Source of the DNA: Escherichia coli
GTDB taxonomy: Bacteria > Pseudomonadota > Gammaproteobacteria > Enterobacterales > Enterobacteriaceae
Length of the DNA: 64,000 nt
NCBI RefSeq assembly: GCF_045037415.1
Contig: NZ_CP173438.1
Strand: one strand, 5' to 3'
Below are positions 16,268 to 16,340 of this stretch, one piece after another. Position 1 is the first letter of the stretch; each line of letters begins with the position of its first letter. A program made the translations under genes and the position numbers. The notes beneath the pieces were generated by a model that was given only the letters and a program-made list of their open reading frames with translations, was not told the origin of the DNA and made no database searches.

Positions 16268-16340
16268 GCGAGGACTCCTGTTAAACCCGCTGGAGGAAAA
16301 CGGTAATGATAGCGGGTTAACAGGAGCAAGATGTAGTGGT

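Follow-up and report, generated by a model that had tools for sequence, protein, structure and literature searches.

A hairpin enclosing the nfo core promoter in Enterobacteriaceae and its possible role in insulating nfo translation from yeiH read-through transcription

The yeiH-nfo spacer and its hairpin

In the window, i.e., the whole 64,000-nt stretch of Escherichia coli DNA analysed here, the genes yeiH, nfo and yeiI follow one another on the minus strand (Table 1), and yeiE is located on the plus strand, divergent from yeiH. The spacer between the yeiH stop codon and the nfo start comprises 73 nt and houses a hairpin, as the preliminary description of this DNA had placed it. In the order of the transcribed RNA the spacer reads UAA-ACCACUACAUCUU-GCUCCUGUUAACCCGCU-AUCAUUACCGUUUUCCUCC-AGCGGGU(U)UAACAGGAGU-CCUCGC-AUG. 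The yeiH transcription start site (TSS) corresponds to window position 17407 (U00096.2:2247722, Kim, 2012; NC_000913.3:2249699), and the gene is weakly expressed (13 reads; Kim, 2012). In the divergent control region of yeiE and yeiH (17391-17488), where the published yeiH TSS maps to about 17407 on the minus strand and that of yeiE to about 17465 on the plus strand, the two promoters stand back-to-back, approximately 58 bp apart, with AT-rich repeats between them.

Table 1. Features of the yeiH-nfo-yeiI region in window coordinates
Feature	Position	Strand	Basis or remark
yeiI CDS	14318..15406	-	NCBIfam NF007416; shares with nfo the transcript that starts at 16301
nfo CDS (endonuclease IV)	15410..16267 (ATG 16267-16265)	-	RefSeq; NCBIfam NF002199, 1.2e-167
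3' (downstream) arm AGCGGGU(U)UAACAGGAGU, with bulged U16285; includes AGGAG	16274..16291	-	RNAfold
nfo Shine-Dalgarno sequence AGGAG	16279-16275	-	Within the 3' arm
19-nt loop: five of the six -10 bases, TSS, pyrimidine-rich tract GUUUUCCUCC	16292..16310	-	
nfo-yeiI TSS (G), inside the loop	16301	-	SMRT-Cappable-seq, NC_000913.3:2250806
-10 hexamer TATCAT	16306..16311	-	Its first T closes the loop as the last paired base of the 5' arm; located 5 bp before the TSS
5' (upstream) arm GCUCCUGUUAACCCGCU, contains anti-SD CUCCU	16311..16327	-	RNAfold
Putative SoxS/MarA/Rob site, marbox/soxbox-like 20-mer ATCGCATAAACCACTACATC	16330..16349	-	Overlaps the yeiH stop codon
yeiH stop codon	16343-16341	-	
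yeiH CDS (YeiH-family membrane protein)	16341..17390	-	ORF listing; RefSeq; NCBIfam TIGR00698, 1.1e-170

The yeiI gene of the window is approximately 81% identical to that of MG1655 (66-84% per 100 nt across the first 900 nt), the identity of its neighbours being 99.3% for yeiH, 100% for the yeiH-nfo spacer and 98.3% for nfo. The allele looks divergent or recombinant, with a breakpoint near the 3' end of nfo, and the gap between nfo and yeiI is 3 nt long in the window vs 2 nt in K-12. Two other strong palindromes were seen in the window, at 12220-12260 and 62617-62661; one of them is REP-like (GCCGGATG...CATCCGGC, 20-nt arms, 1-nt gap), and the other is a stem flanked by an A-run and a T-run, resembling a bidirectional terminator.

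On the minus-strand RNA the hairpin has the form CUCCUGUUAACCCGCU-(19 nt)-AGCGGGU(U)UAACAGGAG. In its minimum free energy (MFE) structure, predicted by RNAfold, positions 16327-16311 are paired with 16291-16286 and 16284-16274, which makes 17 pairs, namely 16 Watson-Crick ones and the closing G16327-U16274, with U16285 bulged; an inverted-repeat search recovered both gapless blocks of the arms. The preliminary description, which gave the repeat as 16275-16291/16311-16327 with one bulge and a 19-nt loop, was thus right to within 1 nt, and its observation that AGGAG, 7 nt before the nfo ATG, forms part of one arm was reproduced as well, the 7-nt distance to the ATG (16267) being occupied by UCCUCGC. 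Folding of the region, which that description had suggested as a check, gave a stem whenever both arms were included: the hairpin MFE is -25.8 kcal/mol, compared with -12.0 +/- 2.6 kcal/mol for shuffled sequences (z = -5.41), and none of the 200 shuffles was as stable. The raw size of the repeat is not rare, inverted repeats of 13 nt or more numbering 20 in the window; the case rests on the conservation of the hairpin (see below), by which we judge that it is not a product of chance.

Other identities of the element were considered. A structure in the plus-strand RNA was rejected on account of a weaker z value (-3.5), A-C mismatches and the lack of a gene in that orientation. A repeated element of the REP/BIME, ERIC or MITE kind was rejected as well, the segment occurring at a single place in each of 5,425 E. 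coli genomes. An Rfam search with the hairpin at a permissive threshold returned chance-level matches to unrelated families only, with the best E-values of 5-8.

Transcription start of nfo and the two RNA forms

In the SMRT-Cappable-seq data of Yan et al. (2018; PMC6131387; Supplementary Data 1, 2, 4) a TSS at NC_000913.3:2250806, forward strand, is represented by 145 reads in M9 and 123 reads in rich medium. Its transcripts reach 2252832 and span b2159|b2160 (nfo-yeiI), a single transcription unit which was flagged 'novel' against RegulonDB and for which only one TSS is listed (PMC6131387). The site was projected onto the window via the MG1655 record (L081), identical to the window here, with the ATG at 2250840 corresponding to position 16267. 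The TSS originates from one study in two media, without oxidative-stress induction; the method clusters TSSs within 5 bp, and even so the site stays 3' of the upstream arm, being located 10 nt past the end of this arm (16311) in the context TATCAT-TACC-G-UUUUCC. It is unusually close to the -10 hexamer; it is followed by four U, and the closest step from pyrimidine to purine is C16302/G16301. In promoter coordinates, the 5' arm represents the promoter spacer (-26..-10) and the 3' arm represents positions +11..+28 of the nfo mRNA.

The sole invariant block in the alignment of 31 Enterobacteriaceae species is CCCGC-TAT-x-x-T, the -10 hexamer taking the forms TATCAT, TATGAT or TATACT with the T, A, T and the final T invariant. 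The hexamer is also present, at a similar distance to the ATG, in Erwinia and Pantoea (Erwiniaceae), which are devoid of the hairpin. Binding of the RNA polymerase-sigma70 holoenzyme to the yeiH-nfo spacer was detected by genomic SELEX (PMC3946193). No recognisable -35 hexamer was found at the nfo promoter, which fits an activator-dependent one; the marbox-like 20-mer spans -48..-29, covering the expected -35 position, 18 bp upstream of the -10 hexamer. Over -48..-30 it matches 17 of the 19 positions of the consensus AYnGCACnnWnnRYYAAAY (PMC3709825), a match that alone is not above chance (23 matches in the window vs 18 expected), and it is conserved as GCATAAACCACTACAT in many genera; the putative assignment is retained on its position and conservation. 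In the literature nfo is described as marbox/SoxS-driven.

In other published datasets, the TSS and 3'-end tables of Adams (2021) contain no entries for nfo or yeiH, the TSSs of Kim (2012) comprise those of yeiH, yeiE and one inside nfo with none for nfo itself, and the files of Ettwiller (2016) gave no match. The site inside nfo lies 258 nt upstream of yeiI (U00096.2:2249464, approximately window position 15665; Kim, 2012). In K-12 the nfo-yeiI transcript ends (2252832) within a REP-like palindrome, of which the window has no exact equivalent. The nfo mRNA begins with a conserved pyrimidine-rich tract, GUUUUCCUCC (16292-16301; in many genera TTTCCCC); it lies in the 3' half of the loop, is dispensable for the stem, and is absent in the Enterobacter cloacae group, where the loops are 12 nt long.

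As the TSS lies in the loop and the -10 hexamer at the edge of the arm, the nfo-yeiI mRNA made from this promoter cannot carry the stem, which is able to form only on RNA entering from yeiH. The proposal of the preliminary description that the stem gates translation of the nfo mRNA does not stand up to this mapping: the start lies past the upstream arm, and nfo's own mRNA is made without it. A cis-regulatory element in the nfo 5' UTR that gates translation, e.g., by opening under stress, is in our estimation hardly tenable. The Shine-Dalgarno (SD) sequence is indeed fully paired whenever both arms are present, but the TSS at 16301 and the invariant -10 hexamer (16311-16306) put the upstream arm in untranscribed promoter DNA, no second TSS is listed for the nfo-yeiI unit, and no Rfam family matches.

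Partition-function folding contrasted the two RNA forms. In the RNA starting at 16301 the SD has a mean probability of being unpaired of 0.64 and requires 2.7 kcal/mol to open, vs probabilities of 0.003 and 0.001 in RNAs extended by 60 and 150 nt into yeiH, respectively, where opening requires 10.7-11.2 kcal/mol. The ribosome-binding site (RBS) of the read-through form was likewise costlier to open across the 31 Enterobacteriaceae species, folded with the predicted 5' end set as far from the -10 hexamer as in E. coli and with an RBS window of -14..-5: the median difference was 7.6 kcal/mol, exceeding 3 kcal/mol in 26 of the 31 species, and the remaining five showed little predicted occlusion. 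When the upstream sequence was dinucleotide-shuffled in six of the species, the values fell to 2.6-6.4 kcal/mol vs the observed 12.8-18.3 kcal/mol, and the observed values were reached in 0-1 of 150 shuffles. The stem begins 13 nt past the yeiH stop codon, a distance at which, judging by ribosome footprints, it is probably outside the reach of the terminating ribosome. Furthermore, there would be no kinetic window exposing the SD, because it is the last-transcribed part of the stem.

A terminator scan of the minus strand over 15900-16900 detected no terminator-like site between the yeiH stop codon and nfo. According to the long-read data, yeiH is a one-gene unit and nfo occurs in a single transcriptional context, nfo-yeiI (PMC6131387). 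No yeiH-nfo molecule is found among these reads, an absence that, with yeiH so weakly expressed (13 reads), is weak evidence either way; the picture is compatible with a read-through RNA that ends early, and is only weak evidence for it. If the stem acts as an insulator, yeiH read-through RNA would occur in vivo with a translationally silent nfo cistron, and this silence would be the property kept by selection.

Conservation, covariation and relation to terminators

Among 5,426 complete E. coli genomes, 5,424 carry the segment in a single copy with an identity of at least 99%, and the hairpin is kept in about 30 genera of Enterobacteriaceae, which include Escherichia, Pseudocitrobacter, Pluralibacter, Enterobacter, Leclercia, Lelliottia, Kosakonia, Phytobacter, Shimwellia, Superficieibacter, Pseudescherichia and others. 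Across the genera the loop length varies from 12 to 55 nt, the arms stay paired, and the -10 hexamer occupies the 5' end of the loop in every case. The covariance model derived from this set (R1) matches Enterobacteriaceae nfo leaders only, with one site in the window. By adding metagenome variants, retrieved by a pattern that fixes only CCCGCTATNAT and the nfo start, a set of 62 distinct sequences was obtained.

In this set, with the alignment fitted to the model and the sequences related to one another, 85% of the cells are paired vs 38-54% after displacement of the partner by 1-3 columns, and changes on both sides are seen in 8 pairs (0/500 shuffles) and in 14 of 973 cells (0/500 shuffles). 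A plain MAFFT alignment gave a weaker signal, with 81% of the cells paired and 7 pairs changed on both sides (11/500 shuffles). The covariation is real but sparse. It comprises U-A to C-G swaps in L024 and in L121/L164/L188, the latter three carrying the coordinated change CUGCUAAC/GUUAGCAG; GUCAAA/UUUGAC in Shimwellia, a U-A to C-G swap by which the bulge is resolved; CCCGG/CCGGG in Enterobacter ENT03; and, in L168, a swap that falls inside the SD (CUCCCG/CGGGAG). In Cedecea the SD lies 16 nt further downstream, and the upstream CUCCUG still pairs with CAGGAG in the MFE structure. Citrobacter and Kluyvera have lost AGGAG together with CUCCU, and their inner stem extends through the -10 hexamer. 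The arm sequences are far more conserved than pairing needs, to which the constraints on the promoter spacer and on the 5' UTR may contribute in part.

In two metagenome variants, L165 (219-626) and L177, different insertions of approximately 0.4 kb and 1.5 kb with small ORFs separate the yeiH stop codon from the nfo -10 hexamer. They share the same right junction, directly 5' of CTGTTAACCCGCTAT; in both variants other sequence stands in place of the marbox-like region and of the outer anti-SD (CUCC), and the inner stem is retained.

The comparative data bear on whether the repeat acts as DNA, i.e., as a dyad operator or a cruciform flanking the melting region of the nfo promoter and controlling initiation. 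The arms are nearly symmetric about the -10 hexamer and TSS (-26..-10 and +11..+28) and unusually conserved in sequence, in agreement with such a role. However, a fixed protein dyad cannot be reconciled with an arm spacing that differs between genera (12-55 nt), the bulge and the 19-nt loop disfavour cruciform extrusion, and the wobble bias points to the sense RNA: G-U cells number 39 vs 20 A-C cells, an excess which favours sense-strand RNA. To our knowledge, there is no candidate binding protein for this dyad, and we hold action at the DNA level to be highly improbable.

The synteny of yeiH and nfo is found in most Enterobacterales, and strong SD occlusion is confined essentially to Enterobacteriaceae. 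In Serratia, Yersinia, Providencia and Edwardsiella, canonical terminators are located 60-90 nt upstream of the nfo ATG and precede a -10 element of the TGnCATAAT type. The yeiH terminator of Edwardsiella (L063:1350-1440, L074:1340-1420) possesses a 14-bp stem with the arms CACCCTGTTAACC/GGTTAGCAGGGTG, a 3-nt loop and a U-run, and has a 10-11-mer, CCTGTTAACC(C), in common with the E. coli hairpin arm; by our own rough estimate, two spacers of this size would have such a word in common by chance with a probability of about 0.01. Because of the shared CCTGTTAACC, common descent of the two structures is suggested, and the hairpin is probably a remodelled yeiH terminator, in which the nfo -10 hexamer and TSS now occupy the loop and the 3' arm now provides the SD. 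In Pectobacterium (L034), yeiH is followed by CCTGTTAAC with no obvious stem.

In E. coli itself an intrinsic terminator was rejected: the loop of 19 nt lies beyond the 3-8 nt expected of such a terminator, the stem is followed by UCCUCGCAUG and not by a U-tract, and the minus-strand scan was negative. Citrobacter variants, having a 9-nt loop and a stem followed by TTTAATTT, pass the terminator test. The Citrobacter and Kluyvera leaders (L004, L006, L012, L014), covering approximately 70 nt upstream of nfo, are without AGGAG, and their sole SD-like element is GGCGGG, placed 8 nt ahead of the ATG; a 14-bp stem whose pairs take in the -10 hexamer TATACT is followed there by TTTAATTT, a terminator-like structure that ends at the nfo start codon.

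These features are relevant to the reading of the hairpin as mainly an element of the yeiH 3' end, either a (possibly factor-assisted) terminator or a barrier to 3'-5' exonucleases that stabilises the mRNA, with SD occlusion being incidental. The stem stands 13 nt after the yeiH stop codon, the long reads give yeiH as monocistronic, canonical terminators occupy the equivalent place in Serratia, Yersinia and Providencia, and the Citrobacter variants together with the common descent suggested by the word shared with Edwardsiella point in the same direction. Nevertheless, the E. coli stem with its 19-nt loop runs into UCCUCGCAUG, the scan was negative, and no 3' end at the stem was present in the 3'-end tables searched. 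Moreover, a pure stability element needs no tracking of the SD by the outer pairs, yet such tracking is seen in the L168 swap, in the CUCCUG:CAGGAG pairing of Cedecea and in the joint loss in Citrobacter. We consider this reading possible, though on the doubtful side; it overlaps partly with insulation of nfo, and the two are not mutually exclusive. The suggestion of the preliminary description that the structure marks processing or termination of the yeiH transcript is hence retained in part: the stem, being confined to RNA from yeiH, may mark the yeiH 3' end and/or occlude the nfo SD, but in E. coli it has neither the U-tract nor the loop size of an intrinsic terminator.

It could also be supposed that the hairpin is a functionless relic, i.e., a decayed yeiH terminator whose halves were kept separately, one as the promoter spacer and the other as the SD and 5' UTR. 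Conservation of each arm beyond the needs of pairing, homology to the Edwardsiella terminator and weak occlusion in 5 of the 31 species would agree with this. Independent constraints on the halves, however, would not yield compensatory double changes (8 pairs, 0/500 shuffles), nor the co-loss of SD and anti-SD, nor pairing retained through repeated changes of loop length; a mere relic is, in our view, unlikely.

Possible function and parallels with known systems

The function for which the hairpin is maintained might be the insulation of nfo translation from yeiH transcription, a proposal that we regard as evenly balanced between being right and being wrong. The arrangement would represent a promoter-straddling 'fold-back' hairpin, in which the nfo core promoter is nested in the inverted repeat. 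RNA made from nfo's own promoter, reportedly activated by SoxS/MarA/Rob, would contain the downstream arm only and have an open ribosome-binding site. RNA entering from yeiH would contain both arms and fold once the SD is transcribed, hiding the latter in a stem of about -26 kcal/mol. Nfo synthesis would then follow only the stress-regulated promoter of nfo and be insulated from the YeiE-controlled transcription of yeiH, and the untranslated read-through RNA would probably be ended by Rho or degraded. The hairpin may additionally serve as an element of the yeiH 3' end. A more far-reaching scenario, which we put forward tentatively and consider rather less than probable, is that a 'promoter-in-hairpin' insulator evolved in Enterobacteriaceae by expansion of the terminator loop for the -10 hexamer and TSS and by recruitment of the 3' arm as the SD; it would silence read-through translation, possibly triggering Rho termination in the untranslated nfo, and leave the SoxS-driven mRNA fully active. 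A literature search, to the extent of its reach, which did not extend to the primary nfo papers of the 1980s-90s, found no description of the hairpin.

Davis, Simons and Kleckner are said to have described 'fold-back inhibition' in IS10 in 1985, and an analogous protection of IS50 against read-through transcripts was reportedly found by Krebs/Schulz and Reznikoff. In these insertion sequences an inverted repeat brackets the transposase TSS, so that transcripts from outside bury the translation-initiation region and the element's own transcripts are translatable. The nfo arrangement is similar in that the SD lies in the downstream arm, with a predicted probability of being unpaired of about 0.001 when both arms are present, and in that the TSS lies between the arms, the own mRNA lacking the upstream one. 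It differs in that nfo is a chromosomal stress-inducible DNA-repair gene and not a transposase gene, the case being known from sequence, folding and a mapped TSS; in that the upstream arm also serves an activator-dependent promoter as its spacer; and in that upstream transcription comes from a fixed neighbour, yeiH, and not from random insertion sites.

The left end of IS200 carries a terminator against impinging transcription and a separate SD-sequestering hairpin in the 5' UTR (PMC4513863). The nfo arrangement, like that of IS200, joins protection from upstream transcription with sequestration of the SD by a stem, but the SD stem of IS200 sits in the transposase mRNA's own 5' UTR and is constitutively repressive, whereas the nfo mRNA excludes the stem. 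With Rho-independent terminators and mRNA-stabilising intercistronic stem-loops the hairpin shares a stable GC-containing stem just downstream of a stop codon; unlike Rho-independent terminators, in E. coli it is devoid of a U-tract, its loop is 19 nt long, and its 3' arm extends into the SD of the next gene.

In class II promoters activated by SoxS/MarA/Rob, the marbox overlaps the -35 region. The nfo promoter, a putative member of this class, resembles them in its marbox-like 20-mer at -48..-29, the lack of a recognisable -35 hexamer and the reported marbox/SoxS regulation, a likeness that concerns the promoter nested in the hairpin and not the hairpin itself. We know of no other member of the SoxS/MarA/Rob regulon with its core promoter inside an SD-occluding inverted repeat. 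The hairpin is most likely a fold-back insulator like those of IS10/IS50, or a terminator remnant, acting on yeiH read-through.

Among the genes of the SoxRS oxidative-stress regulon nfo is a standard example, and activation of the promoter is usually taken as the whole explanation of its expression. Should the proposed insulation hold, Nfo output would also be protected post-transcriptionally from a differently regulated neighbour, yeiH, providing a chromosomal counterpart to the fold-back protection of insertion sequences, in which two RNA forms of one gene would differ in translatability purely by virtue of an internal promoter inside the stem. For RNA-seq and operon maps this would imply that read-through RNA need not mean protein, and reporter fusions designed with the upstream arm would give too low a reading of expression. 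The likely descent from a terminator would make this compact intergenic region an example of one structure re-used for a new job. If general, compact intergenic regions may commonly settle the conflict for space between terminator and promoter by placing the promoter in a hairpin, and transcript-form-specific translation would then be a widespread, unannotated layer of operon insulation.
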